Below, piece after piece: positions 4,084-38,694 of a stretch of DNA of 64,000 bases. The translations under genes and the position numbers were made by a program. The stretch is from an uncultured Actinomycetes bacterium (GTDB taxonomy: Bacteria > Actinomycetota > Coriobacteriia > Anaerosomatales > PHET01): NCBI GenBank assembly GCA_963770765.1, contig CAVYQS010000005.1, positions 205,242 through 269,241 on the forward strand. The letters run 5' to 3'. The notes under the pieces are model-generated. The model was not told the DNA's origin, ran no database searches, and worked only from the letters and a program-made list of their open reading frames with translations. The first letter of the stretch is position 1. Each line of letters opens with the position of its first letter.

Positions 4084-4866
4084 CTACTGCGCGGTGTCGG
4101 CGAAGCGCAGCTGCAGGACCGTGCCCACGACGCCCACGACGAACGTGAGCGCGACCACCACATAGCTGCCCGACGGCAACGACTCCACCGGCGCACCCAC
4201 CGAACCCACCAGCAGCGGAACGATCGACCACGGGAACCACACGGCCCAGCCGGTGGCGCCGAACACGTTGCCCAGCAGAAGCATCCCCAGGGCGAAGCCG
4301 ATCGGCGCGATGTTGCCGCGCCCCCAGACGGTGACCCACGCGATCATCGGCACGAGCAGGTACGAGATCCCGGCAGCCAGCAGCACGTTGCCCACCATCT
4401 GGGGAATGACACCCGCCGAGTAGCCCTCGATTCCCAGCGCGAACCCGATCGCTATCGCCTCGGCGAGCATCACCAGAACGATCGCGAACCACCACAATGC
4501 GGCGACTATGAGTTTCGCAACAGCGAACCAGTGGCGCCCCACCGGGAGAGCCAGCATGTTCTTGGCAGTCGCGTCGTCGTATTCGCGACCGAAGACGTAG
4601 GCGACGATGAAGGCGAGCAGCAGCATGCCGCCGGTGCCCACGATCTGCACGATGAACAACGAGTACGACGGCCCACGTCGCCTCGATGCCGGCGATGTCG
4701 GTTTTCGCGCCGAGCAGCCCGAGCTGAGCAGCTCGCCCCGGCTCCATGGCGATCCACATGAACAGCGCCAAGCCCAGCGGTCCCATCATCAGCGCGCCCA
4801 AGGTAACCCACGGCACCTTCGCGTGGCGAAGCTTCAGAAGCTCGGTCAAGAGCACGGTCCCGAACA

Positions 4867-4867
<1 letters not shown>
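4084..4867 (-). pseudogene. ABC-2 type transporter permease, split by a +1 frameshift near 4672-4674
   Basis: The N-terminus (MFGTVLLTELLKLRHAKVPWVTLGALMMGPLG..GIEATW) is in one frame and the C-terminus (PSYSLFIVQIVGTGGMLLLAFIV..) in another. Removing one G from the TGGGCC run restores ..EATWPSYSLFIV.. Confidence 0.7.
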
Positions 4868-5655
<788 letters not shown>

Positions 5656-5876
5656 CGCGTTTCCATTTCGGTCGACGATAGCGTGGCCGCGGACAGATTG
5701 CGGTTCGCACGGTGGGCGAGTGAGCCCGTTGGTCAGAGGTACTCGGGAGAGGGTTCCCCAGCGCACTCCTTGGGGAAGCCGCCGGGCCGCGGCTGGTTGT
5801 TGGTCGTCGGGTGGGTAGCCCGACGGGGGCGGTCAGTGAGGTCAACACCAGACTCCCGCGACGTGAACTGTGCCCC

Positions 5877-5938
5877 AATTTGTCGTTGTTGTCTTATCTA
5901 GCGCCTGCGACGACAATTTGCTAGATTGTCATTGTTGC
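5877..5938. repeat. AT-rich repeat/palindrome cluster upstream of fic
   Basis: Inverted repeat AATTTGTCGT (5877-5886) / ACGACAATTT (5910-5919). Direct repeat TTGTCGTTGTTGTC (5880-5893) / TTGTCATTGTTGC (5926-5938). This is one of the lowest-GC stretches of the window. Confidence 0.4.
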
Positions 5939-5955
5939 TTTTCTGAGGGGATACG

Positions 5956-6996
5956 ATGACAAATTCTTCTGCGGGCCGCGCGCCTAGAGGGCGGCCCTCG
6001 CGCGCCGCGGTATACCAGCGGTTCGCCACCGCCATCGATGAGCTTGGACGATACGGCGGCCTTCCTACCCCGGTCGAGGCCAAGCAGCTCTGGGATGACG
6101 TGTGGCACCTTGAGGCCCACCACTCCACGGCGCTCGAGGGCAACACACTCGTGCTGCGCGAAGTCGAGCAACTCCTCGAACAGGGCAGGGCGGTGGGATC
6201 GAAGGAGCTCAAGGACTACATGGAGGTCCTCGGCTACTCGGAGGCCGCGCGTTGGGTCTACGAGCAGGGAGTGGCGCCAGTTGAGTTCCGGCACGATGGC
6301 CTGATCAGCGTCACGGAGGTCCGCCACATCCATGAGCTGGCGATGGCCAAGGTGTGGGAGGTCGCGCCGCACCCGGACGCCTACCCAGACGAGGCCCCGG
6401 GAAGCTTCCGCCAACACGACATCCACCCGTTCCCGGGCGGGATGACCCCGCCGACCCACCCGCTCGTTTCGGCAGGTGTCGCTTCGTGGGTCGAAGAGGT
6501 GAATCGGTTCGGCGGGGCGCTCGCCGACGGAACGCTCGGTCTGTCCGATGTTCCGGAAGCGCTCGCGCGCATCCACGCCGACTTCGAGCGACTACACCCG
6601 TTCATCGATGGCAACGGGCGCACGGGTCGACTCCTGCTCAACCTCATCTTGACTCGTCTGGGTTGGCCCCCAATCGTCATCTTCAAGGAGCAGCGAGGGC
6701 GCTATCTCAAGGCGCTCGACCGTGCCGACCACGACGATCTCGGCCCACTTGCGGAGATCATTGTCCGCGCGGTCGTCGACAACCTCCACCGCCTCATCCC
6801 CAACATCGCCGGGCCCGCGAAGTACGTGCCGCTCGAGGCGCTTGCCGACGAGGAATTCAGCCTCGCGGCGCTCAAGCAAGCTGCTGGCCGTGGGCGGCTC
6901 GAAGCAATCATCGGCACCGACGGACGGTATCGGTCGAGTCGCGCTGCGGTGGAGGCATACAAGGCATCGAAGTACGCGCGAGGCGACAAGGCCTGA
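5956..6996 (+). CDS. Fic family protein (class II, with N-terminal inhibitory helix)
   Basis: Fic motif HPFIDGNGRTGR. Upstream STALEGN matches the (S/T)xxxE(G/N) auto-inhibitory motif. Confidence 0.9.
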   Translation: MTNSSAGRAPRGRPSRAAVYQRFATAIDELGRYGGLPTPVEAKQLWDDVWHLEAHHSTALEGNTLVLREVEQLLEQGRAVGSKELKDYMEVLGYSEAARWVYEQGVAPVEFRHDGLISVTEVRHIHELAMAKVWEVAPHPDAYPDEAPGSFRQHDIHPFPGGMTPPTHPLVSAGVASWVEEVNRFGGALADGTLGLSDVPEALARIHADFERLHPFIDGNGRTGRLLLNLILTRLGWPPIVIFKEQRGRYLKALDRADHDDLGPLAEIIVRAVVDNLHRLIPNIAGPAKYVPLEALADEEFSLAALKQAAGRGRLEAIIGTDGRYRSSRAAVEAYKASKYARGDKA

Positions 6997-7030: not shown

Positions 7031-7059
7031 TTGACCACCATCGCCGCAGGGCTTACTCT
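7031..7059 (+). promoter_or_regulatory. Candidate sigma70-type promoter of the ArsR operon
   Basis: TTGACC (7031-7036), 17-nt spacer, TACTCT (7054-7059). Confidence 0.35.
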
Positions 7060-7068
7060 TGCTAGATA

Positions 7069-7086
7069 GTTCGAAAAGCATCGAAC
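7069..7086. promoter_or_regulatory. Candidate ArsR/SmtB operator (copy 1)
   Basis: GTTCGA-AAAGCA-TCGAAC, a perfect 6-6-6 inverted repeat just downstream of the -10. The left context GATAGTTCGAAA is repeated at 7459-7470. Confidence 0.4.
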
Positions 7087-7099
7087 AAGGAGTCCCACG

Positions 7100-7417
7100 G
7101 TGACAACTGCCACGCAGGCAACCTCGACGAATCTGGATGCCGTCTTCAAGGCACTGGCTTCCTCACATCGCCGCGAGATCCTCGCGATGCTGAGCGCGGC
7201 CGACAGCGAGGGGAACAAGACGTGCTGTGCCGCCGAGGAGGTCTGCGCCTGCAAGATCTCCGAACGCCTGGGGTTGTCGCCGTCCACCACGTCCCATCAC
7301 ATGTCGGTCCTGCGCGACGCGGGCTTGGTCACGGGTCGCAATGAGGGCACGTGGACGTATTACACGCTACGCCGCGAGGTGCTTGCTGCGGTGGCTGAAG
7401 CGTTGACCAACTTCTAG
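7100..7417 (+). CDS. ArsR/SmtB family metalloregulator
   Basis: wHTH SERLGLSPSTTSHHMSVLRDAGLV. Cys-rich sensing region KTCCAAEEVCACKI resembles the ELCVCDL As(III) site. Confidence 0.9.
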   Translation: MTTATQATSTNLDAVFKALASSHRREILAMLSAADSEGNKTCCAAEEVCACKISERLGLSPSTTSHHMSVLRDAGLVTGRNEGTWTYYTLRREVLAAVAEALTNF

Positions 7418-7425
7418 AACCTCAA

Positions 7426-7448
7426 GGAGGCCGGGATACCCGGCCTCC
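7426..7448 (+). terminator. Stem-loop between arsR and the downstream genes (attenuator or terminator candidate)
   Basis: GGAGGCCGGG-ATA-CCCGGCCTCC, a perfect 10-bp stem. There is no clear U-tract. Confidence 0.4.
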
Positions 7449-7462
7449 CTCTCGGCCTGATA

Positions 7463-7480
7463 GTTCGAAAGACTTCGACG
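7463..7480. promoter_or_regulatory. Candidate ArsR/SmtB operator (copy 2)
   Basis: GTTCGA-AAGACT-TCGACG, 5 of 6 bp inverted repeat. Same GATAGTTCGAAA left arm as copy 1. Lies 17 nt upstream of the Trx_3 gene start. Confidence 0.35.
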
Positions 7481-7496
7481 TAGGAGGAATGACGGC

Positions 7497-7733
7497 ATGG
7501 AGATCAAGGTGCTCGGACCAGGATGCGCGAACTGCAACAAGCTTGAGGAGGCGACCCGCAAGGCGGTCGAGAAGGCCGGCCTCGACGCGACCATCGAGAA
7601 GGTGAGCGACCTGCAGGAGATCATGAGCTACGGCGTCATGTCGACGCCCGCGCTCGTCGTCGACGGCGAGCTCCGCCTTGCCGGTCGTGTGCCTTCCGTC
7701 GACGATCTCGTCGCACTGCTTCAGAGGGGCTAG
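7497..7733 (+). CDS. Thioredoxin_3 / MTH895-type redox-active disulfide protein
   Basis: 78 aa: MEIKVLGPGCANCNKLEE (CxxC), ..YGVMSTPALVVDGEL..GRVPSVDDL. Confidence 0.85.
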   Translation: MEIKVLGPGCANCNKLEEATRKAVEKAGLDATIEKVSDLQEIMSYGVMSTPALVVDGELRLAGRVPSVDDLVALLQRG

Positions 7734-7739
7734 CGAGTC

Positions 7740-8759
7740 GTGTTCGAGGCCATCGGCAATGTCCTTGGGTGGATGAACGAGAACTTCCTCAAGATGACGT
7801 GGCTCAACGAACTCGTTGGCCGCTTCATCGAGGACGTCTTGGGGTTGTCGCTCACCAGCAAGCTCGGCGCGAGCCTGCAGTTCTTCGTCTACGACACGGT
7901 CAAGATCTTCGTGCTGCTCTCGGCGTTGATCTTCGCTATCTCGTACGTGCAGAGCTACTTTCCGCCCGAGCGCACCAAGGCGATCCTCGGCAGGTTCAAC
8001 GGAATCACCGGCATGGTCCTTGGCGCTCTGCTTGGCACGATCACGCCGTTTTGCTCGTGCTCGTCGATCCCGCTGTTCATCGGCTTCACGTCTGCGGGCT
8101 TGCCCCTGGGCGTGACGTTCGCGTTCCTGATCTCGTCGCCGCTCGTCGACCTCGCGTCGGTGATGCTTCTTGCGAGCATCTTCAACTGGACCACGGCGAT
8201 CGCCTACGTGATCGTGGGCCTCGTGCTCGCGGTCATCGGCGGCTTCATCATCAGCCGCCTCAAGCTCGAGCGCTACGTCGAGCCTTTCGTCTATGGGAGT
8301 CACCTCGCCGATGCGGACCTGCCGGCACTGACGCGAGCCGACCGCTTGGCCTACGCTCGCGAGCAGGTCGTCGATGTCGTCAAGAAGGTGTGGCTCTACG
8401 TCCTCATCGGCGTGGGTATCGGGGCGATCATCCACGGATGGATACCGGGCACGTTCATCTCGGCGGTGCTTGGCTACGAGAACCCGTTCGCCGTCATCAT
8501 CGCCACGGCGATCGGCGTCCCCATGTATGCGGACATCTTCGGCACCCTTCCGATAGCTGAGGCGCTCGTGGGCAAGGGCGTCGGCTTGGGAACGGTGCTC
8601 TCATTCATGATGGCGGTCACGGCGCTGTCCCTGCCGTCGATGATCATGCTCAAGAAGGTGGTCAAGACCCCGCTGCTCGCCACCTTCTTCGGCATCGTCG
8701 TGACCGGGATCATCATCATCGGCTACACCTTCAACGCCTTCGGGCGGCTGTTCGTCTAG
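7740..8759 (+). CDS. ArsP_1/DUF318 family permease
   Basis: Polytopic membrane protein with the family-typical TPFCSCSSIPLF cysteine motif, in the usual ArsR-Trx_3-permease arrangement. Confidence 0.85.
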   Translation: MFEAIGNVLGWMNENFLKMTWLNELVGRFIEDVLGLSLTSKLGASLQFFVYDTVKIFVLLSALIFAISYVQSYFPPERTKAILGRFNGITGMVLGALLGTITPFCSCSSIPLFIGFTSAGLPLGVTFAFLISSPLVDLASVMLLASIFNWTTAIAYVIVGLVLAVIGGFIISRLKLERYVEPFVYGSHLADADLPALTRADRLAYAREQVVDVVKKVWLYVLIGVGIGAIIHGWIPGTFISAVLGYENPFAVIIATAIGVPMYADIFGTLPIAEALVGKGVGLGTVLSFMMAVTALSLPSMIMLKKVVKTPLLATFFGIVVTGIIIIGYTFNAFGRLFV

Positions 8760-8791
8760 ACGAGTGATCGGCTTCGGATCAGAAGAGGTGC

Positions 8792-9232
8792 GTGCTCATG
8801 GCAGTGAAACGGATCGTGCTTCCGGTGGATGGCTCGGCGACCGCAGAGGCCGCCGCTCGCTTCGCCGAGGACATCGCTCGCTCCGAGGGTGAGATGGTGA
8901 TCGTGTTGGGCGTGGTCGTGCCGCTTGCACCAGCGACCGATGAGGCCGTGTCGGTGACAGCCGCGATCCACCGGTTCATGACCGAGCAGGTTGCCGCCGA
9001 GGCGGCGCGAATCCGGGCAGTCGGCATACCCGCCGAGGAGCTCGTGGTGGAGGCGGGCTCTCCCCACGAAGGCATCCTGAAGGTGGCGGTGGAGCGCGAC
9101 GCCGACGTGATCGTCATGGGCACCCACGGCCGGACCGGACTCGTGCGTGCTGTCATCGGCTCGGTCGCCGACAAGGTCGTACGGCATTCGCAGGTGCCGG
9201 TGGTGCTCGTCCCCCTGAAGAGTGAGGACTGA
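8792..9232 (+). CDS. Universal stress protein (UspA family)
   Basis: VKRIVLPVDGS..., VMGTHGRTGLVRAVIGSVADKVVRHSQVPVVLVP. Confidence 0.85.
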   Translation: MLMAVKRIVLPVDGSATAEAAARFAEDIARSEGEMVIVLGVVVPLAPATDEAVSVTAAIHRFMTEQVAAEAARIRAVGIPAEELVVEAGSPHEGILKVAVERDADVIVMGTHGRTGLVRAVIGSVADKVVRHSQVPVVLVPLKSED

Positions 9233-9233
9233 C

Positions 9234-9749
9234 ATGCGCGAGCAAGAAGGCCCGCACGAACCTGTGCAGCCGGAGCCCACAGCGGAATCGGGCGTATCGA
9301 CCCGCATGGTCATCGTGTTTGTCGTGATCGCACTCTTCGCCGGGATCCTCGCTGCGAAGTACCTGTCGCCGTCCCAGCCGGGCGGAAGCGACGGTCTGGC
9401 CGCCCGGGAGTCGCTGACATCGGTGCGCAACGATGCGGCTGCCGACTACGAGGCGGCTGTGAAGTCGGGCAAACCCATCTACGTCCTGTTCCACTCGCTG
9501 AGTTGACAGTCGTGCCTTGAGATCTCGGCGGTCGCCGACACAGTCATCCCCGACTACCAGGACAAAGTCGCATTCGTGAACGCCATCACCGACGACCCCT
9601 CGGCGCAGCAGCTGTCGTCGAAGTTCTCGTTCCAGTACATCCCCTCGTCGTTCTTCGTCATGCCCGACGGGACGGTCTCGGACTCGTATACCGGACCGCT
9701 GTCTGAGAGCGAGATGCGCGCCCGGCTCGACGCGTTGGTCGCCCAGTGA
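9234..9749 (+). CDS. Membrane-anchored thioredoxin-like protein with an in-frame TGA (9504-9506) at the first CxxC position. Candidate selenoprotein (U-Q-S-C).
   Basis: TM anchor MVIVFVVIALFAGILAAKYL. Trx fold reads KPIYVLFHSLS-[TGA]-QSCLEISAVADTVIPDYQDKVAFVNAITDD..FQYIPSSFFVMPDGTV. The frame and coding character continue for 80 codons after the TGA. The final stop overlaps the ccdA GTG (GTGA). Confidence 0.6.
9507..9555 (+). promoter_or_regulatory. Candidate bacterial SECIS element
   Basis: Upper hairpin UCGGC-GGUC-GCCGA (9525-9538). The GGUC loop starts 23 nt after the UGA. A possible lower stem pairs AGUCG (9508-9512) with CGACU (9551-9555). Confidence 0.45.
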
Positions 9750-10450
9750 ACGTTGAGTCGCTCGCGCAGAATCTCACCGCCGGTGCGGCATGGGGTCCGG
9801 TCGCATTCGGGATAGCGTTCCTCGGCGGACTCGTCGCCGGGCTCGGGCCGTGTGTCTTGCCCATGATCCCGGCGGTGTTCGGCTACGTGACCGGCCAGGT
9901 GGGCGAGTCGAAGGGGACGTCACCTCTGCTTCGGGGGCTGGCGCTCTCGGCCGTGTTCGTCTTGGGGATGAGCCTCGTCTTCGCGGCGATCGGTGCGGTG
10001 GCAGGCCTGCTCGGACGCGCACTGATCGTCGACACGTGGGCGTACTACGCCGTGGCGGCCATCTGCGTGGTGATCGGCCTGCAGATGCTCGGGGTCATCA
10101 ACCTGCCCGTGGACCGGCTGAACCGGTGGCTTCCGGTGAAACGGCCCGAGCGTCGTGGTGTCGTGGGGGCGTTGCTGTTCGGCATGCTCTTCGGCCTGGT
10201 GGCGACGCCGTGCTCGACGCCCATCCTCGCTGCGATCGCTGCCATCGCTGCGACGACCGGCAACGCCGCGAAGGGCGCTGCACTGCTGTTCGTCTACGGC
10301 ATCGGCAAAGGTACGCCGCTGCTGCTTCTGGGCATCGCATCCGGCTCGCTCGTCTTCATGCGCTCGGTTTCGAGGATCACGCCGGCGCTCACGAAGATCG
10401 GCGGCGTTGGGATCATCGCTGCGGGTGCGTATCTCGTGTGGATCGCCTGA
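9746..10450 (+). CDS. ccdA: Cytochrome c biogenesis protein CcdA (DsbD-family thiol-disulfide transporter)
   Basis: Conserved GLGPCVLPMIP and VATPCSTPILAA cysteine motifs. Six-TM pattern. Confidence 0.9.
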   Translation: MNVESLAQNLTAGAAWGPVAFGIAFLGGLVAGLGPCVLPMIPAVFGYVTGQVGESKGTSPLLRGLALSAVFVLGMSLVFAAIGAVAGLLGRALIVDTWAYYAVAAICVVIGLQMLGVINLPVDRLNRWLPVKRPERRGVVGALLFGMLFGLVATPCSTPILAAIAAIAATTGNAAKGAALLFVYGIGKGTPLLLLGIASGSLVFMRSVSRITPALTKIGGVGIIAAGAYLVWIA

Positions 10451-10466
10451 CAGAAAGGTGGCACAG

Positions 10467-10847
10467 GTGGACGAAGTCATCATCAAGGTCATCGACCAAA
10501 GCTGCGCTTGAGGCGGCGGAACCGACTGCTGCGACAGCCTCGAGTCCGACCTCGCCGGATATCCGGCGGGTGCGACTTGAACGCTTCCGCTGCAATGGCG
10601 CCTGCAGGTCGTGCAGGCACGGGTTCAAGAATCGACCGGCGTGTCGGTCACAGTGGAGGAGGCAGACCTGTTCGCGCTGACGGGAGCAGACAGGGAAGCA
10701 GCCCTCTCGGGCCTGACCTCCGGTCTCGAGCTCCCGTTCGTGATCGTTGAGGGCGTCCTCGCGTGCTCCGGCGACTTCGATCTGGAGCGCATCGAGCAGG
10801 CCGTGGGGGCGCGTGGTGCCGGCTCAGACACGGCGCCGCTTGGGTAG
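10467..10847 (+). CDS. ArsD/Trx_3-like thioredoxin-fold protein with two in-frame TGA codons (10509-10511 and 10578-10580). Either a candidate selenoprotein or a decayed gene.
   Basis: GTG start with AAAGGTGG as RBS. Reads MDEVIIKVIDQSCA-[TGA]-GGGTDCCDSLESDLAGYPAGAT-[TGA]-TLPLQWRLQ..GVSVTVEE..LELPFVIVEGVLACSGDFDLERIEQAVG. The layout resembles ArsD: beta1, a Cys cluster, then ..LPxxxxDG..G. There is no alternative start codon between the two TGAs. Confidence 0.4.
10598..10620 (+). promoter_or_regulatory. Candidate SECIS hairpin after the second TGA
   Basis: GCGCCUGCA-GGUCG-UGCAGGCAC, a 7-bp stem. The loop starts 26 nt after the UGA. Its apex closely resembles the fdhF SECIS apex UUGCA-GGUC-UGCAC. 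Confidence 0.4.
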
Positions 10848-10874
10848 AAGCTCCACGAGACCAAGGGAGGCGTC

Positions 10875-11060
10875 ATGAGCAAGGGCGACACCGGTGCTGC
10901 GGCAGGGGCGGGAGCCGTGTACGGACTCGGCATCTTCGGAGCGATCATCTACTACATCCAGACGGCTTCGAGCTTCTGGGACGGGCTGATCGGCTTCATC
11001 AAGGCGTTCTTCTGGCCGGGATTCATGGTCTACGAGCTGATGCAGTTCCTCAGGATGTAG
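10875..11060 (+). CDS. Small (61 aa) two-TM membrane protein
   Basis: AGGGAGG RBS. Sequence GAVYGLGIFGAIIYYIQTASSFWDGLIGFIKAFFWPGFMVYELMQF. Confidence 0.55.
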   Translation: MSKGDTGAAAGAGAVYGLGIFGAIIYYIQTASSFWDGLIGFIKAFFWPGFMVYELMQFLRM

Positions 11061-11142: not shown

Positions 11143-12059
11143 ATGACCGCACGCATCGCGCTCGTCACCACCGACGACCCCGTGCTCCTCGAGCACGAGT
11201 TCGACCTCGAGCCGCTGCTCGCCGAGTTCGCCCGCAGAGGCATCCCCGCCGAGGCGCCCGTCTGGCACGACCCGAGCGTCGACTGGAGCGCCTACGACCT
11301 CGTCGTGATGCGCAGCCCGTGGGACTACTCGGCGCGGACCGTCGAGTTCCTCGCGTGGCTCGACTCGCTTCCCGCGGGCGGCGTGCTCAACCCGCCCGCG
11401 CTCATCCGCTGGAACTTCGACAAGCGCTACCTGCTCGACCTCGCAGGCGCACGGCGTCACCATCGTCCCCACGATCGTCGCCTCCACGCTCGCGGAGGTG
11501 CGTGCCGCCGCCGAGAAGATCGGCGGGCGCATCGTCATCAAACCGAACATCGGCGCTGGTTCGTGGGGTGCGCACATAACGTCAGCAGGCGACCCCAAGC
11601 TCGACCGAGTACGCGGCCGAGGTGCTCGACTCGGCAAGCTCGTGCTCGTCGAGCCGGAGATCCCGGAGATCACGGCCGGAGGCGAGCACGGCCTGCTGTT
11701 CTTCGACGGCGAGTACTCCCACGCGATCACGAAGGGTCCCATCCTCGCCGATGACGGCGGATACCTGGGCGGCGAGTACAGCGAGGACATCACGCCCGTG
11801 ATCGCCGAGTGAAGCCGAGATCGAGCTTGCGTGGCGCTGCAGCCGGGCTATCGCCCAGATCGCCGAGGAGCGCGGGTTCGCCAGCGACGCCGCGACCACG
11901 CCGCTCTACGCGCGCTACGACATCGTGACCGGTGCGAACGGCCCGATGGTGATCGAGGCCGAGCTGTTCGAGCCGAGCTACTTCGTCGAGACCGCGCCAG
12001 GGAGTGTGCGGCGGGTGGTGGATGCGATGGTGGGGCGACTGGAGCTAGAACAGGTCTGA
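11143..12059 (+). pseudogene. ATP-grasp domain protein with at least 4 frameshifts
   Basis: The coding sense jumps frame near 11447-11451 (..LDLAG|HGVTIVPTIVASTLAEV..), ~11604, ~11633 (..KLD|EYAAEVLDS|GKLVLVEPEIPEI..) and 11810 (..PVIAE|EAEIELAWRCSRAIAQIAEERGF..ELEQV*). Confidence 0.65.
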
Positions 12060-12999: not shown

Positions 13000-14362
13000 A
13001 TGATCCCTCGCTACTCCCGTCCCGAGATGGCCCGCATCTGGGACCTCGAGAACAAGTTCGCGATCTGGCAGGAGATCGAGGTGCTCGCGTGCGAAGCGCA
13101 GGCCGAGCTGGGGCAGGCCGGCATCACCTCCGAGGAGGCTGCCCACATCCGCGCGCACGCCGCGTTCGAAGTCGAGCGCATCGACGAGCTCGAAGCCGTC
13201 ACCAACCACGACGTCATCGCGTTCCTCACCAACATGGCCGAGCACATCGACGCCAATCTCGGCGAGGACGACCCCAAGCCCAGCCGCTGGGTCCACTACG
13301 GCATGACCAGCTCGGACCTAGGCGACACGGCGCTGTGCTACCAGATGATGCAAGCGACCGACATCCTCATCGCCGACGTCCGCCGGCTCGGCGAGATCTG
13401 CAAGCGCCGAGCGCTCGAGGAGCGCGACACCCTGTGCGTGGGCCGCACGCACGGCATCCACGCCGAGCCCATGACCATGGGCATGAAGTTCGGCCGCTGG
13501 GCGTTCGCGTGGAAGCGCGCGCTCGACCGGCTCGAGCGCACCCGCGAGAACGTCGCGGTGGGCGCGATCTCCGGCGCCGTGGGCAGCTACTCCAACATCG
13601 ACCCGTTCGTCGAGCAGTACGTGTGCGAGAAGCTCGGTCTGCCAGCCGGAGCCGATGTCGACCCAGGTCATCCCGCGCGACCGTCACGCGCAGTTCCTCG
13701 CCGTGCTCGCGACCGTCGCCGCCACCGCCGAGGAGATCGCGACCGAGGTCCGCGCGCTCCAGAAGTCCGACACCCTCGAAGCCGAGGAGCCGTTCGCCAA
13801 GGGCCAGAAGGGCTCATCGGCGATGCCGCACAAGCGCAACCCCATCACGGCCGAGCGCGTCTGCGGCCTCGCGCGCGTGATCAAGGCCAACGCTCAGGTG
13901 GGCTTCGACAACGTGGCGCTGTGGCACGAGCGCGACATCAGCCACTCGTCGGCCGAGCGCGTCGTGCTCGCCGACTCGACGATCGGGCTCGACTACATCC
14001 TGGGCAAGCTCGAGTGGATCCTCGACGGGATGGTGCTCTATCCCCAGCGCATGATGGCGAACCTCGAATCCACGCGCGGACTCATCTACTCGAGCCGCGT
14101 GCTGCTCGCGCTCGTCGACTCGGGCATGACGCGCGAGGACGCGTACGCCGTGGTGCAGGGTGCGGCGATGAAGGTCTGGGCCGACATCCAGGATGCGGTG
14201 CCGGGTCCGGGATTCCGAGACTACCTCGAGTCGAGCGCAGCGGTGCACGGGGAGTTCCCGCTCGACTTCGGGCAGCTCGAAGAGTGCTTCGACCCGCGCA
14301 GCTTCCTCACGCGTACCGGCGTGCTGTTCGATCGGGTCGCAGGCGCTGGAGTTCTAGGTTGA
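13000..14362 (+). pseudogene. purB: Adenylosuccinate lyase, interrupted by a 1-nt frameshift near 13640-13646
   Basis: N-terminal part MIPRYSRPEMARIWDLENKF..GRTHGIHAEPMTMG..EKLGLPA in frame 1. C-terminal part (E)PMSTQVIPRDRHAQF..GSSAMPHKRNPI.. in frame 2. An extra G in GCCGGAG explains the shift. Confidence 0.8.
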
Positions 14363-14742
14363 GCCCCGTCCTCACCGGCGCCGTCGTCGGCATCCTGCTC
14401 GCGGCATCGCTCTACTCACTCGCCGTCTTCGCCGAGCGGCGCGCGGGCGTGCTGAGGCCGTGGCACCTTGTCGTGTTCTGGGTGGGCTTCGCGGTCGACA
14501 CCACCGCGACCACACTCATGAGCATGATCACCGGCGGTATCGCGATGGACATCCACGGGATTCTCGGAGTAAGCGCGATTCTCATCATGTTCGTGCACTC
14601 GGTGTGGGCGACGGTCGTGCTGGTGCGCAAGGACGATGCGGCAGCTCGGAAGTTCCACACGTTCAGCCTGGCGGTGTGGGCGCTGTGGATGGTCACGCTC
14701 GTCACCGGTTTCGCGCTGTCGCTGCCCAAGGTGATGGGGTAG
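14359..14742 (+). CDS. Small integral membrane protein (about 4 TM)
   Basis: Tail of the 580-aa track ORF: LSPVLTGAVVGILLAASLY..MDIHGILGVSAILIMFVHSVWATVV.. Proposed TTG start overlaps the purB stop. Confidence 0.55.
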   Translation: MSPVLTGAVVGILLAASLYSLAVFAERRAGVLRPWHLVVFWVGFAVDTTATTLMSMITGGIAMDIHGILGVSAILIMFVHSVWATVVLVRKDDAAARKFHTFSLAVWALWMVTLVTGFALSLPKVMG

Positions 14743-23117: not shown

Positions 23118-25088
23118 ATGCCATCCGTCCTGCTCGACATCACGGTCATCTTCGCGCTCGCCGTTCTGGCATCCGTGATCTGCCACCGGCTGGGTCTGCC
23201 CTCGTCGATCGGCCTGCTGCTCGCGGGCGTGCTCGCGGGCCCCGATGCACTGGGACTGGTGCGAAACGCCCACCAGATCGAGCTGCTCTCCGAGATCGGT
23301 GTCGTGCTGCTCTTGTTCGTCATCGGGCTCGAGTTCTCGCTCGCCGACCTCTCGCATCTCAAGCGGCAGTTCCTCGTGGGCGGATCGATCCAGTTCTTCG
23401 GCACCGCGCTCGTGGTGGGTGTCGGCACCGTGATGATGGGTTCGACGGTCCAGCAGGGTCTCTACATCGGCTTCATCGTCGCGCTTTCGAGCACCGCGAT
23501 CGTGCTGAAGATGCTCCAGGAGCGTGCCGAACTCGACGCGCCGCACGGGCGGATGGTACTCGCCACCCTGATCTACCAGGACATCGCTGTGGTTCCGGTC
23601 ATGCTCATGGCCCCGCTGCTCGCCGGATCGAACGGGGGCGAGTCCGGTACCGGTGCCGTTCTCGGCCTGGTGGTCCGCGTCGTCGCGGTGGCTCTGTTCG
23701 CCTTCGTCGCCTATCGCTGGGCGGTGCCGTGGCTGCTCGAGCGCATCACGCGCACCCGCAGCTCGGAGGCGTTCCTGCTGGGCGTCATCGCGCTCTGCGC
23801 GGGCATCGCCCTTCTCACGCAGTCGATGGGCCTCTCGCTCGCGCTGGGAGCCTTCCTCGCCGGCCTGATCATCTCGGAGTCCGACTACTCGCATCAGGCC
23901 GTGACGGTGGTCATGCCGTTCCGCGACGTCTTCATCAGCCTGTTCTTCGTTTCGATCGGCATGCTGCTCGACATCGACTACTTCCTCGCGAACCCCGCTC
24001 GGATCGCGTTGCTCACCGCCGGCATCCTGATCATCAAGCCGGTCGTGGCGACCGCCGGCGGCCTCGCGCTGGGGCTGCCTTTGCGCGCGGCAGTGCTCGC
24101 GGGTCTGGCGCTCGCGCAGGTAGGGGAGTTCTCGCTGGTTGCGGCGCAGGCCGGAGTCACCGCGGGGCTGTTTGGCAGTGAGGTCTTCCAGACGGTCCTC
24201 GACACCGCCGTGCTGAGCATGTTGCTCACCCCGGCGATGGTGGCGATCGGTCCCTCCTGCGCCGACGCCCTGTGCAAGACCCCGCTTGTCCGGCTCGAGC
24301 GCGGCGGGTTCTCCTCGGCCAGAGTGGGAGCTGCCCACGAGTACGCCGGGCACGTGCTGATCGTGGGCTTCGGGGTCACCGGCCGAAATGTAGCGCGCAC
24401 CGCCCGGCTCGCCGGCGTCTCCTACGCGATCCTCGAACTCAACGCCGGCACGGTGAAGGAGGCCTTGCTCGCGGGGGAGCCCATCCACTACGGCGATGCG
24501 ACGCACGAGGAGATCCTGCACCACGTCGATGCCGAGAAGGCCCGCGCGATCGTGGTCGTCATCGATGATCCTCCCGCGGCGAGGCGCGTCGTCGAACTGG
24601 CCCGGCGGATCGCTCCCGACGCCTTCGTCCTCGTGCGCAGCCGCTACCTGCGCGAGGTCGAACCCCTACTTGCGCTGGGAGCCGATGAGGTCATCGCCGA
24701 TGAGCTCGAGGTCTCGATCGAGGTGTTCTCGCGGGTGCTCGCCCGCATGCTCGTGCCGCGCGAGGACATCAAGCGGCTCATCGGAGACGTGCGCGGCGAC
24801 TGGCGGCGCATGGCCCGCTCCTTTGCGACCGATGCGACATCGGTGCCCGACCTGCGCGTCAACCTGCCTGACCTCACGACTCACACGCTGAGGCTATCCG
24901 GCTCGTCGAAGCTCGTGGGCCGTTCAGTCGCGGAAAGCGGGCTGCGGACCGATCACGGCGTCACGGTGCTCGCGGTCACGCGCGGCGACGAGACGATCGG
25001 CAACCCGCGTGGCGCGCTGGTCTTCGAGCCCGGAGACGTGCTGTTCGTTGTGGGTCCGATGGAGTGGGAGCCCGGGTCGGTCGCCTGA
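23118..25088 (+). CDS. CPA2 family monovalent cation:proton antiporter with RCK (TrkA-N/TrkA-C) domains
   Basis: Kef-like membrane domain, followed by HVLIVGFGVTGRNVA Rossmann motif and a TrkA-C-like C-terminus. Confidence 0.9.
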   Translation: MPSVLLDITVIFALAVLASVICHRLGLPSSIGLLLAGVLAGPDALGLVRNAHQIELLSEIGVVLLLFVIGLEFSLADLSHLKRQFLVGGSIQFFGTALVVGVGTVMMGSTVQQGLYIGFIVALSSTAIVLKMLQERAELDAPHGRMVLATLIYQDIAVVPVMLMAPLLAGSNGGESGTGAVLGLVVRVVAVALFAFVAYRWAVPWLLERITRTRSSEAFLLGVIALCAGIALLTQSMGLSLALGAFLAGLIISESDYSHQAVTVVMPFRDVFISLFFVSIGMLLDIDYFLANPARIALLTAGILIIKPVVATAGGLALGLPLRAAVLAGLALAQVGEFSLVAAQAGVTAGLFGSEVFQTVLDTAVLSMLLTPAMVAIGPSCADALCKTPLVRLERGGFSSARVGAAHEYAGHVLIVGFGVTGRNVARTARLAGVSYAILELNAGTVKEALLAGEPIHYGDATHEEILHHVDAEKARAIVVVIDDPPAARRVVELARRIAPDAFVLVRSRYLREVEPLLALGADEVIADELEVSIEVFSRVLARMLVPREDIKRLIGDVRGDWRRMARSFATDATSVPDLRVNLPDLTTHTLRLSGSSKLVGRSVAESGLRTDHGVTVLAVTRGDETIGNPRGALVFEPGDVLFVVGPMEWEPGSVA

Positions 25089-37100: not shown

Positions 37101-37261
37101 GGCCGCCGGAGGTACGGAGGGCGCACGACCGTCTGCCGTGCGCACCTTCGCGAGTGACGAAAGTCACAGTCGCAGGTCAAGCCGGCTACGCGAGCGGCCG
37201 ATAACAAGGAGCGTGGAGAACGAAGGCCCGAGGGCCTTCCCGACCACTCACTGACAACCCG

Positions 37262-37340
37262 ACAAAGGCAAACCCGTCGCGAGGCGGGGGCGCAAAACCA
37301 AGGGTCTCTCGCGAGAGACAGCCTAGTTGCCGAAGGTGAT
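37262..37340 (+). promoter_or_regulatory. Candidate c-di-GMP-I (GEMM-I) riboswitch
   Basis: ACAAAGGCAAACC-CGUC-GCGA-GGCG-GGGGCGCAAAACC-AAGG-GUCUCUC-GCGA-GAGAGAC-AGCCUAGUUGCCGAAGG. Compare the Vc2 core GGCAAACC..GAAA..GGGACGCAAAGCC...AGC.GGGUUACCGA. The GAAGGUGA SD follows immediately. Confidence 0.6.
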
Positions 37341-37344
37341 CGTC

Positions 37345-38694
37345 TTGAAGAAGCTCCCCGCTGTCTTGTGCGCGGCCGTGCTCGTCTCGGCCGTCCTCGC
37401 CTCTCCGGCCCCCGCGTTCGCCGCCTCCAAGCTGCGGGTCAGCACCACGGTCAAGCCCGTGGTGAAGTCGGGCGCCACCGGAAGAGTAGTGGTCAAGTCG
37501 AAGTCGACGCGTCCGGCGAAGTTCAAGGTCACCGTCTACAAGAACGGCAAGCGCATTCGGACGATCAAGCCCAAGGGCACGTGGTATCGCAAGAGCACTA
37601 CGTGGAACCTTCGCGACTCGAATGGCAGGAAGGCTGCGGCGGGTGTCTACACGGTCAAGGTCACCGCGACGCGGAACGGCCGGTCCGTGAGCAAGGTCAG
37701 GCGGATCCGCGTGGTGAAGCCCGCCCCGAAGCCGGTTCCCGCGACCCCGCCCACGGTCTCTCCCGAGCCGGAGCCTACCTACCCCAGCCCTGACCCCTCC
37801 GCACCCGGAGCCCCGGTGACACCGGTGGTCAATCCGGCCGCAAGCTCCCCGCGCTGGGTCGGATTCTACGTCCCCGGCGTTCCCGGCAGCATGAGCCCCC
37901 TCGATGCCGTGGAGAACGCGACCGGAGCCGATTCGGCCGTCGTCAACTTCTTCATCAGCGACAGCGAGAGGTTCCCGGCATCCCGTTGCGAGAACGTGGC
38001 CGAAGCGGGTGCGGTGCCGCTCGTCACCCTTGAGTTCTGGTCGATCCAGAACTCAGGCGGCCTCGCCGCGATCAACAACGGCAGCAAGGACGCCTACCTG
38101 CGCACGTTCGCGGATGCAGCGAAGGCGTATGGGGGCGAGGTCTGGCTTCGCCCGTTCCATGAGATGAACGGCAACTGGTACCCGTGGTGCGGGACCGTGG
38201 GCAACAATACCCCCGCACAGCTCGTCACGGCATGGCGTCACGTGTACGACGTCTTCCAGTCCCGCGGTGCCACCAACGTCAAGTTCGTCTGGTGTGCGAA
38301 CGTCGACAGCGTCCCCAACACGACCGCGAACCAGATCGCGAAGTTCTGGCCGGGCGACGCCTACGTGGACTCGGTCGCCCTCGACGGCTACAACTGGGGC
38401 GTCACGTCGGCGTCGTGGTCCTCGTGGCGCAGCTTCGGCAGTATCTACGGACCCGCGTACAACACGGTCACGGCCCTGACCTCGAAGCCGCTGTTCATCG
38501 CCGAGATAGGGTGCTCGGAAGTGGGCGGCAGCAAGGCGGCATGGATCACCGACATGTTCAAGTCGATCACGAGCACCTACACGCGCGTGCGAGGCGTGGT
38601 CTGGTTCGAAGTCGACAAGGAGCAGGACTGGCGTGTGACCGCCTCGAGTGCGAGTACCGCCGCATACCGAAACGCAGTGACGGCCGGCTACTGA
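37345..38694 (+). CDS. Secreted GH26-like glycoside hydrolase with N-terminal Ig-like (FlgD-Ig-like) domain and Pro-rich linker
   Basis: Preferred TTG start gives MKKLPAVLCAAVLVSAVLASPAPAFA. Also VYTVKVTATRNG and FHEMNGNWYPWCG. The track start at 37327 lies inside the riboswitch. Confidence 0.75.
   Translation: MKKLPAVLCAAVLVSAVLASPAPAFAASKLRVSTTVKPVVKSGATGRVVVKSKSTRPAKFKVTVYKNGKRIRTIKPKGTWYRKSTTWNLRDSNGRKAAAGVYTVKVTATRNGRSVSKVRRIRVVKPAPKPVPATPPTVSPEPEPTYPSPDPSAPGAPVTPVVNPAASSPRWVGFYVPGVPGSMSPLDAVENATGADSAVVNFFISDSERFPASRCENVAEAGAVPLVTLEFWSIQNSGGLAAINNGSKDAYLRTFADAAKAYGGEVWLRPFHEMNGNWYPWCGTVGNNTPAQLVTAWRHVYDVFQSRGATNVKFVWCANVDSVPNTTANQIAKFWPGDAYVDSVALDGYNWGVTSASWSSWRSFGSIYGPAYNTVTALTSKPLFIAEIGCSEVGGSKAAWITDMFKSITSTYTRVRGVVWFEVDKEQDWRVTASSASTAAYRNAVTAGY

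Follow-up and report, generated by a model that had tools for sequence, protein, structure and literature searches.

Positions 7065 to 11060 of the window (the whole 64-kb stretch that was analysed, 64,000 nucleotides of contig CAVYQS010000005.1 from an uncultured Actinomycetes bacterium of the class Coriobacteriia) carry an ArsR-controlled operon that is probably a metalloid-responsive detoxification system, most likely for arsenic or organoarsenicals, conserved in uncultured Coriobacteriia and Actinomycetota and equipped here with two selenoproteins. These are a membrane-anchored thioredoxin with one in-frame UGA codon and a 126-aa protein, here called P7, with two. The three UGAs had been taken for selenocysteine (Sec) codons in the original prediction made from this DNA and, judging from comparison with homologues, are very probably decoded as such: Sec aligns with Cys, the codons recur across species, and hairpins resembling Sec insertion sequence (SECIS) elements accompany them. 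The same prediction had described an ArsR-controlled operon of metalloid type, and bona fide ars genes found in relatives bear this out.

Organization of the operon

As had been predicted, eight tightly spaced genes lie on one strand. All eight open reading frames (ORFs) are on the + strand between 7100 and 11060, and their junctions range from a 4-nt overlap to a gap of 79 nt (Table 1). Scans with Pfam and NCBIfam models assign six of the eight, and the labels ArsR, Trx_3, ArsP, universal stress protein (USP), anchored thioredoxin (Trx) and CcdA given beforehand are upheld by family models above their cutoffs; P7 and a 61-aa ORF match no model. The first protein combines a model score above cutoff with a C-x-C motif, as expected of an ArsR/SmtB metalloregulator. 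Its sensor motif contains four Cys residues (K-T-C-C-x4-E-V-C-A-C), and most orthologues keep K-T-C-C-x4-E-V-C-[AG]-C, several of them with a single Cys of the CC pair. The C-x-C precedes the predicted DNA-binding helices, at what we take, by expectation, to be the alpha-3 metalloid site.

The Trx_3 protein belongs to the MTH895/ArsE family and has the active-site motif G-C-A-N-C after strand 1. The permease is placed in the ArsP_1 family by its model and its vicinal Cys pair; of 34 matches to the motif in related loci, 33 keep the CSC and none has UGA there. An assignment as the aromatic-arsenical efflux permease ArsG (NF040495) was rejected, at 45.5 bits against a cutoff of 200. CcdA contains both P-C motifs of its family (GLGPCVLPM and ATPCSTPIL) and is predicted to transfer electrons; the first of these Cys residues is kept in 42 of the 42 loci scanned. 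The start of ccdA overlaps the stop codon of the Trx gene, and the two are therefore regarded as translationally coupled.

Table 1. Genes, recoded codons and nucleic acid elements of the operon, in window coordinates
Feature	Position	Strand	Description
Operator copy 1	7065-7092	.	GATAGTTCGAAAAGCATCGAACAAGGAG; inverted repeat GTTCGA-N6-TCGAAC; directly upstream of arsR
ArsR/SmtB-family repressor	7100-7417	+	105 aa; NF033788, 82.5 bits (cutoff 55)
Perfect 10-bp hairpin	7426-7448	+	GGAGGCCGGG-ATA-CCCGGCCTCC; G+C-rich, without T tract; between arsR stop and operator copy 2
Operator copy 2	7459-7486	.	GATAGTTCGAAAGACTTCGACGTAGGAG; upstream of the Trx_3 gene
Trx_3 (Thioredoxin_3), MTH895/ArsE family	7497-7733	+	78 aa; small, cytoplasmic; TIGR00412, 110.8 bits (cutoff 62); PF13192, 105.9 bits
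ArsP_1-family permease	7740-8759	+	339 aa; PF03773, 214 bits (cutoff 32.3); vicinal Cys pair TPFCSCS
USP	8792-9232	+	146 aa; PF00582, 108 bits
Membrane-anchored thioredoxin selenoprotein	9234-9749	+	171 aa; PF00085, 30.6 bits (cutoff 23.5); active site S-U-Q-S-C
UGA of Trx	9504-9506	+	Sec in place of the first (N-terminal) Cys of CxxC
SECIS-like hairpin of Trx	9525-9538	+	UCGGC-GGUC-GCCGA; spans 22-35 nt downstream of the U in UGA 9504
CcdA (DsbD transmembrane core)	9746-10450	+	234 aa; PF02683, 109.7 bits (cutoff 27.1)
P7, thioredoxin-fold protein (modelled on homologue)	10467-10847	+	126 aa; two Sec; no Pfam/NCBIfam family
First UGA of P7 (C-x-U)	10509-10511	+	UGA in 25/26 distinct relatives
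Hairpin after first UGA	10513-10532	+	GCGGCGG-AACCGA-CUGCUGC; starts 4 nt past the stop
Strong hairpin between the two UGAs	10553-10568	+	CGCCGG-AUAU-CCGGCG; segment 10509-10577, z = -2.8
Second UGA of P7 ([ST]-U-x-[ML]-P)	10578-10580	+	UGA in 20/26, Cys in 6/26 distinct relatives
SECIS-like hairpin after second UGA	10600-10618	+	GCCUGCA-GGUCG-UGCAGGC; 7 bp; 23-41 nt from the second UGA
61-aa hydrophobic ORF	10875-11060	+	no family in Pfam/NCBIfam; not a conserved part of the module

Conservation of the module and its probable link to arsenic

For the analysis of synteny, the eight proteins served as tblastn queries against the window itself and 45 related loci. The order ArsR-Trx_3-ArsP-(USP)-Trx-CcdA recurs in about 40 loci of metagenome-assembled genomes (MAGs) from Coriobacteriia, Actinomycetes or Actinomycetota, with USP found in just part of the loci and P7 directly after ccdA in 20 of the approximately 40. 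This conserved synteny agrees with the proposal that the ArsR-Trx_3-permease core is a common module. Its extension by CcdA and an anchored Trx had been singled out as special to this DNA; the extension is present, but it is the rule in the approximately 40 related MAGs, where the thioredoxin is mostly in its Cys form. A comparison of gene neighbourhoods had been suggested for all eight genes. The order of seven recurs, with Cys in place of Sec in most of the thioredoxins, but that of the eighth does not: the 61-aa ORF exists, yet tblastn (E <= 1e-4) matched it in none of the 45 related loci, and it is no conserved part of the module.

Genuine arsenic genes adjoin the module in five relatives. 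In L009, L017, L024 and L042 a gene for Acr3 stands directly after that for CcdA, and P7 is absent (TIGR00832, 391-417 bits for the two proteins scored). A fifth locus, L025 (JAUSBS010000119.1, 1100-6030), has the order ArsR-Trx(Cys)-CcdA-ArsD-ArsA-ArsR-Acr3, again without P7. Its ArsD is bona fide (NF033727, 120.7 bits against a cutoff of 90) and occupies the slot of P7, and the ArsD-ArsA pair occurs only there. The first genes of the operon point in the same direction, as an ArsR-ArsP-ArsE operon of Pseudodesulfovibrio mercurii ND132 was up-regulated in arsenic-amended cultures; for operons of this type, ArsP is described as a permease for the efflux of methylarsenite and ArsE as thioredoxin-like, with PF13192 (bioRxiv 10.1101/2022.10.17.512643). 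An arsenic-type substrate is, on these sequence comparisons, fairly likely.

Several observations weigh against it. The window operon contains no arsC, arsA, arsM or acr3. In five loci (L009, L010, L012, L026 and L039) a CDF Cation_efflux gene (PF01545, 141 bits) lies between ArsP and Trx, in L002 a CDF gene adjoins the module, and several relatives have a CDF gene, a CMD protein or split ArsP halves instead of ars genes. The curated models closest to the permease are those of the Cu/Zn-efflux protein SO_0444 (96 bits) and of SaoE (88 bits). Given these neighbours and these nearest models, the substrate may not be arsenic. The same architecture, Sec included, could instead handle thiophilic divalent metals (Cd, Zn, Hg, Cu or Pb), with ArsR as their sensor, the ArsP_1 permease as their exporter and P7 as a Se/S metallochaperone, and a four-Cys sensor site does suit tetrahedral metals. 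We consider divalent metals improbable, however: the SO_0444 and SaoE scores are far under the cutoffs of 300 and 325, the bona fide Acr3, ArsD and ArsA are attached to the Trx-CcdA pair in five relatives, and the published ArsR-ArsP-ArsE operons respond to arsenic (bioRxiv 10.1101/2022.10.17.512643).

A general system for envelope thiol redox or persulfide stress, without any metal or metalloid, is harder still to reconcile with the data. Its ArsR-family protein would be a thiol-redox sensor of the BigR/SqrR type, and CcdA and Trx would act as in cytochrome c maturation or repair under oxidative stress. The classical roles of CcdA-Trx pairs are in the maturation of cytochrome c and the repair of the envelope; the regulator is weakly BigR-like (28.7 bits), the gene set weakly resembles the TsoR/TsoB/TsoX neighbourhood, a USP is encoded here and CMD/AhpD-like and ferredoxin genes occur in relatives. 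Yet no ResB/ResC or cytochrome genes stand beside the Trx-CcdA pair in the sampled loci, the BigR and TsoR scores fall far under the cutoffs of 155 and 115, and the C-x-C at the expected ArsR metalloid site and the linkage to ArsP, Acr3, ArsD and ArsA all argue for a metalloid, which makes such a system very unlikely.

In L009, L010, L012, L014, L020, L026, L028, L029 and L039, ArsP and Trx are separated by accessory genes. One product is CMD/AhpD-like and contains an SPSC motif, and another is a CDF protein with ECASGGCAGGLCA at its end; the others are two ArsP_1-like membrane proteins of half the usual size and a ferredoxin of the 2x[4Fe-4S] kind. In three loci from MFD long-read MAGs, genes of the module appear to be split by frameshifts (ArsR, Trx_3 and ArsP in L012 and L044, CcdA in L004), apparently through faulty assembly and not through decay.

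The probable selenocysteine codon of the anchored thioredoxin

The anchored Trx consists of a single N-terminal hydrophobic helix and a PF00085 domain in which U-Q-S-C is aligned to C-x-P-C. Its score and the CxxC-type site at the expected place identify it as a PF00085 thioredoxin. Read through, the protein contains ...LFHSLS-U-QSC..., the Sec standing in the peptide context FHSLS-U-QSCLEISAVADTVIPDYQDK. A query with Cys for Sec returned 133 homologues; of the best 120, all but one resemble the protein in their full length (152-195 aa) and have identities of 47-74%. When 23 of the homologues are aligned, the UGA coincides precisely with the first Cys of FHSL[TS]-C-x-P-C, a motif that is invariant there and present in more than 100 full-length homologues.

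The codon was surveyed in 42 loci from species-representative genomes. TGA is found at this position in nine other genomes (L004-L009, L019, L023 and L030), and the other loci with a findable Trx motif have TGC or TGT. All Sec forms read U-x-S-C and all Cys forms C-x-P-C, with L032 (CQSC) as the sole exception, so that loss of the active-site Pro appears to accompany selenium use.

By the criteria of bSECISearch, a bacterial SECIS is a stem-loop that follows the UGA at a short distance, its apical loop being some 16-37 nt from the codon and containing a G. The hairpin at 9525-9538, whose GGUC loop lies at +26, has these properties. Within it, 12 nucleotides (TCGGCGGTCGCC) are identical in 9/9 Sec forms that encode S-A-V-A, as against 0/8 Cys forms that likewise encode it (Fisher p = 4e-5, with no correction for phylogeny), and the synonymous sites that flank the hairpin vary freely among Sec forms. 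Since synonymous sites are frozen solely in the Sec forms, the hairpin is likely to be an RNA element that is needed only with the UGA.

The two probable selenocysteine codons of P7

Read through both UGAs, P7 runs MDEVIIKVIDQSCA-U-GGGTDCCDSLESDLAGYPAGAT-U-TLPLQWRL..., which places the first Sec in the context VIDQSCA-U-GGG and the second in GAT-U-TLPLQWR. In this sequence C-A-U follows strand 1 and A-T-U precedes helix 1; there are also a DCCD loop and an A-C-x-G that is conserved. The codon counts in Table 1 refer to 26 distinct P7 sequences, among them one distant paralogue and five metagenome loci, the number obtained by scanning metagenomes with a Sec-free P7 pattern. At the first position Cys occurs only in P0150/L046 (1/26), and this full-length homologue has Cys at both positions (...NAEACGCVRT...EGSTCGMPVEWRL...). 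The flanks conserved in related loci are [VI][VI]..x..C-[GA]-U-G-[GS] around the first UGA and [GE]-[GA]-[ST]-[TA]-U-x-[ML]-P-x-x-W-R-L around the second. Between the window and its closest relative (L004; CAVSCC01, MFD02979.bin.2.170), the segment between the two UGAs differs by synonymous changes only. Some members end in a C-terminal tail of CGCASGGCC or GGCC.

The hairpin after the second UGA, with its GGUCG loop at +30, has the properties of a bacterial SECIS. Across 16 sequences 90% of the cells are paired, two pairs show compensatory double changes, and the covariation score exceeds those of 500/500 shuffles and of all slid controls. The 10513-10532 hairpin after the first UGA is conserved in the P7 subfamily of the window, and other subfamilies have different hairpins there, at +20 to +40. 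The sequence of the hairpin at 10553-10568, between the two UGAs, is not conserved among relatives.

In public protein sets, relatives of P7 occur almost only as fragments of 60-90 aa, many of which begin at a Met two codons past the second UGA. A Cys-substituted query against a word-indexed protein database found two truncated matches only; an exhaustive search of representative proteins used the 88 residues after the second UGA. Every named relative goes under 'hypothetical protein', save for a single 'predicted thioredoxin/glutaredoxin', and all of them lack a Pfam domain.

Two variants of the gene were seen outside the usual arrangement. The genes at L002 (7249-8025) and L022 (about 4500-5326) join P7 to a Cys-rich DUF2703 domain, the fusion running in frame through the first UGA, and the L022 gene lies upstream of arsR instead of after ccdA. 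L047 (CAZFRE010000001.1, same MAG as L008) encodes at 5911-6327 a distant paralogue (DCS-U ... SAC-GMPV) whose loop is longer; it adjoins genes for ThiF, ThiS and an aldehyde:ferredoxin oxidoreductase, with no ars-type context.

Decoding of the UGA codons

UGA orthologues in which coding is conserved on both sides of the codon come from nine other genomes in the case of Trx; for P7, genomes and metagenome contigs together supply more than 20. The UGAs pair with Cys in homologues, in all aligned Cys forms of Trx and at both positions of P7. Third-position G+C (GC3) is high in a single frame across UGA 9504 and, less sharply, across 10509 and 10578, and the G+C content of the window is 64-70% along its entire length. 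High-GC3 ORFs joined in frame by TGA occur at two further junctions only in the whole window, at 25086 and 46284. Both were rejected as recoding sites, being ordinary neighbouring genes, and the three UGAs of the operon are for this reason unique within the 64 kb.

Some findings weigh against Sec decoding. No selA, selB, selD or tRNA-Sec gene lies within the 64-kb window, and the case for Sec is in consequence a comparative one; the window holds no tRNA gene of any kind, and the 45 related loci no tRNA-Sec gene. The hairpin after UGA 10509 has a non-canonical SECIS geometry, with its AACCGA loop at +12 and neither covariation nor compensatory changes, and does not clearly qualify as a bacterial SECIS; this is the weakest point of the Sec assignment. 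The hairpin after the second UGA is kept in forms with Cys at position 2, and may on that account be in part a by-product of L-Q-V-L-E coding.

It could be argued from the missing machinery, from the absence of a canonical SECIS for the first P7 UGA and from the fact that public gene callers split both genes that the UGAs are true stops in dead or split genes, sequencing errors, or sites of near-cognate read-through or of the UGA-to-Trp reassignment reported for Eggerthellaceae (Coriobacteriia; PMC13462651), but this is most improbable: pseudogenes or sequencing errors cannot account for codons that recur, with conserved flanking protein, in more than 20 independent assemblies (9 for Trx and 20-25 for P7), and the aligned residue is always Cys and never Trp, which excludes UGA-to-Trp. 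Moreover, TGA is an ordinary stop in this window, where it ends USP, Trx, CcdA and many other well-supported high-GC3 ORFs, and the ends of the Trx and CcdA genes agree with those of homologues. The frozen synonymous sites of the Trx hairpin and the compensatory changes after the second P7 UGA likewise speak against these readings.

Fold and relationships of P7

The 19 full-length P7 members, with Cys for Sec, gave no meaningful Pfam or NCBIfam match; the best traces were ArsD in one of the 19 (E = 0.67) and DUF1462 in two (E = 0.04 or weaker). Comparison of the P7 profile with PDB sequences returned noise only. Relationships to two other families were rejected, namely to the Trx_3 protein of the window (no PF13192 match; hhalign probability 1.6%) and to DUF2703, the domain fused to P7 in L002 (hhalign probability < 2%). 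An AlphaFold (AF2) model of the all-Cys P0150, built with 53 sequences, has a mean pLDDT of 81 and the order beta-alpha-beta-alpha-beta-beta-alpha. A Foldseek search with this model placed the DUF1462 protein first (PDB code 1xg8, E = 0.012), followed by thioredoxins and glutaredoxins, and P7 is, according to the model, an orphan thioredoxin-fold family. The columns of the family alignment that do not vary comprise the Cys of C-x-U, the two Sec positions, a single Val and a single Pro; from its expected position, this Pro is presumably the cis-Pro of the thioredoxin fold. The active-site region is split by a loop of 21-22 residues that is rich in Cys and acidic residues in the subfamily of the window.

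P7 had been labelled 'ArsD-like', and as a family assignment this label does not hold. The P7 of the window does not match ArsD (PF06953/NF033727), no NCBIfam ArsD match was found for the family members, and hhalign gave a probability of 0.5% for an E. coli ArsD sequence. In the Foldseek search the ArsD structures 3mwh and 3ktb took ranks 37 and 49 (E = 1.4-1.7). The label fits the shape of P7 and its slot in the operon, not its family membership. P7 is a small thioredoxin-fold protein whose soft ligands cluster just after strand 1, and the GGCC tails of some members recall the C terminus of ArsD; in 20 loci P7 occupies the position directly downstream of ccdA that the true ArsD takes in L025. 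Many families, however, combine a thioredoxin-like fold with ligands clustered after strand 1, and the combination is not specific to ArsD. P7 differs from ArsD in that it shows no sequence relationship, has Sec among its ligands, with 21-22 residues between C-x-U and the second Sec, and lacks an ArsA partner, ArsA being absent from the window operon and from the P7-bearing loci.

Proposed mechanism

A metalloid-responsive operon of this composition could work as follows. A thiophilic metalloid would bind the four-Cys site of ArsR and release the repressor from both operators, leading to derepression. ArsP would export the trivalent species, assisted in the cytoplasm by the ArsE-like protein. 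CcdA would pass cytoplasmic reducing equivalents to the outward-facing U-x-x-C thioredoxin, which might keep thiols of the envelope or of the permease reduced or free of metalloid adducts. Substitution of Se for S may provide more nucleophilic groups of lower pKa at both ends of the relay. The relay had been envisaged as extracytoplasmic. This agrees with the anchored Trx and its N-terminal helix, but not with P7, which has no signal peptide and no membrane segment in its sequence and, with no hydrophobic segment at the N terminus, is probably cytoplasmic.

With its C-x-U and second U, P7 could form a soft-ligand metalloid site similar to that of ArsD and hand the metalloid to the transporter. 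Alternatively, it might contain a selenenylsulfide or diselenide redox centre that exchanges electrons with CcdA. Either specific role is doubtful. The segment that bears both Sec positions is of low confidence in the P0150 model, which therefore does not establish that the three chalcogen ligands are close to each other. P7 may also found a family of double-Sec thioredoxin-fold proteins that depend almost obligately on selenium, its split site, with C-x-U closing strand 1 and the second U opening helix 1, being a diselenide or selenenylsulfide centre, or an Se2S metalloid centre; P7 would then replace ArsD and form with CcdA and the UxxC Trx a transmembrane selenium relay that detoxifies arsenic or organoarsenicals in anaerobic Actinomycetota. 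We put this forward tentatively.

Comparison with known systems

The operon is a selenium-using variant of a known, uncharacterised redox module associated with ars operons. CcdA, a thioredoxin and a protein named 'redox-active disulfide protein 2' have been reported as determinants of ars operons (PMC2963123). The same three redox genes accompany ArsR and ars-type transporters in those operons and here, and their role is no better characterised here than there; a supply of electrons was proposed by the authors, who doubted a transmembrane role. The redox genes lie mostly beside arsC there, whereas the window operon has no arsC and combines an ArsP transporter, a U-x-x-C Trx and a two-Sec protein after CcdA. 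Its first three genes are the trio of the ArsR-ArsP-ArsE operons, with the vicinal Cys of ArsP_1 and the MTH895/ArsE model, to which USP, the anchored Sec-thioredoxin, CcdA and P7 are added.

The anchored Trx is a further member of the known UxxC class of thioredoxins and thiol:disulfide-interchange proteins. The UxxC thioredoxin/TlpA-like selenoproteins listed in a 2026 review (PMC13188914) share with it the Sec at the N-terminal CxxC position, the PF00085 domain, Cys homologues and a hairpin. It differs from the class described there in being membrane-anchored, coupled to CcdA and encoded in an ArsR operon, and in having U-x-S-C where Cys forms have Pro. The Sao/Tso neighbourhoods, as judged from NCBIfam names and PMC13188914, resemble the operon in their ArsR-type regulator, ArsP_1-like efflux protein, thioredoxin-like (seleno)proteins and DsbD-like protein. 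Membership was rejected, since all scores fall far below the respective cutoffs (SaoE 88/325, SaoT 14.4/65, TsoR 25.8/115, TsoB 70/805, TsoX 13.5/52) and P7 gave no match.

Among described selenoproteins, P7 can be compared with 'redox-active disulfide protein 2' Sec.1 (CxU) and Sec.2 (UxC) of Brachyspira (Santesmasses et al. 2017, PMC5330540), which are likewise small thioredoxin-fold proteins of the C-x-U type missed or truncated in annotation. Those proteins belong to PF13192 and have one Sec, whereas P7 does not belong to PF13192 and has two. P7 is not in those parts of the family table of PMC13188914 that were examined, and the models behind the table's families do not match it. We found no link between selenoproteins and ArsD, or between selenoproteins and DUF2703, in the literature searched. 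P7 is apparently an unrecognised double-Sec family; the NCBIfam models of Haft do not match it, though it may already have been described by a different name.

A two-Sec family that has no Pfam or NCBIfam model and is present in databases almost only as fragments of about 80 aa means that annotation of this gene is systematically wrong across this Coriobacteria-related clade of MAGs. That the first Sec of P7 is almost never replaced by Cys is unusual for bacterial selenoproteins, and searches based on Cys homology would for this reason miss the family. The operon ties selenium use to the unexplained CcdA, thioredoxin and ArsE-like module of ars operons, and the natural exchanges of Sec for Cys and of P7 for ArsD among relatives are ready comparisons for studying the function of the module. 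The frozen synonymous sites and compensatory changes furnish clean examples of SECIS elements in high-GC Actinomycetota, together with one that is non-canonical.

Operators and surrounding features

The two operator copies claimed in the original prediction are found upstream of arsR and of the Trx_3 gene. The element is 28 nt long, and no match to it arose in 100 shuffles. Most related loci have a TTCGA-N6-TCGAA palindrome ahead of arsR and usually a second one ahead of trx3. ArsR may bind both copies. Attenuation or RNA stability may be the function of the perfect hairpin that lies between the arsR stop and operator copy 2. Scans for sigma-70 promoters and terminators gave nothing above chance.

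Two neighbouring genes lie outside the conserved module, a Fic/DOC-domain gene directly upstream of the operon (5956-6996, + strand) and an ABC-transporter ATPase gene close by (4867-5766, - strand). ORFs overlap in two frames in the 11143-11812 region. The ORF at 13000-14742 (+ strand) has a start like that of adenylosuccinate lyase, an Arg/Pro-rich middle and a hydrophobic end typical of a membrane protein, features that point to a frameshift or to the fusion of two genes. At 37258-37335 (+ strand) there is a c-di-GMP-I-GGC riboswitch aptamer (RF03167; 74.3 bits, gathering threshold 59), which overlaps the start of the ORF 37327-38694 by 9 nt.

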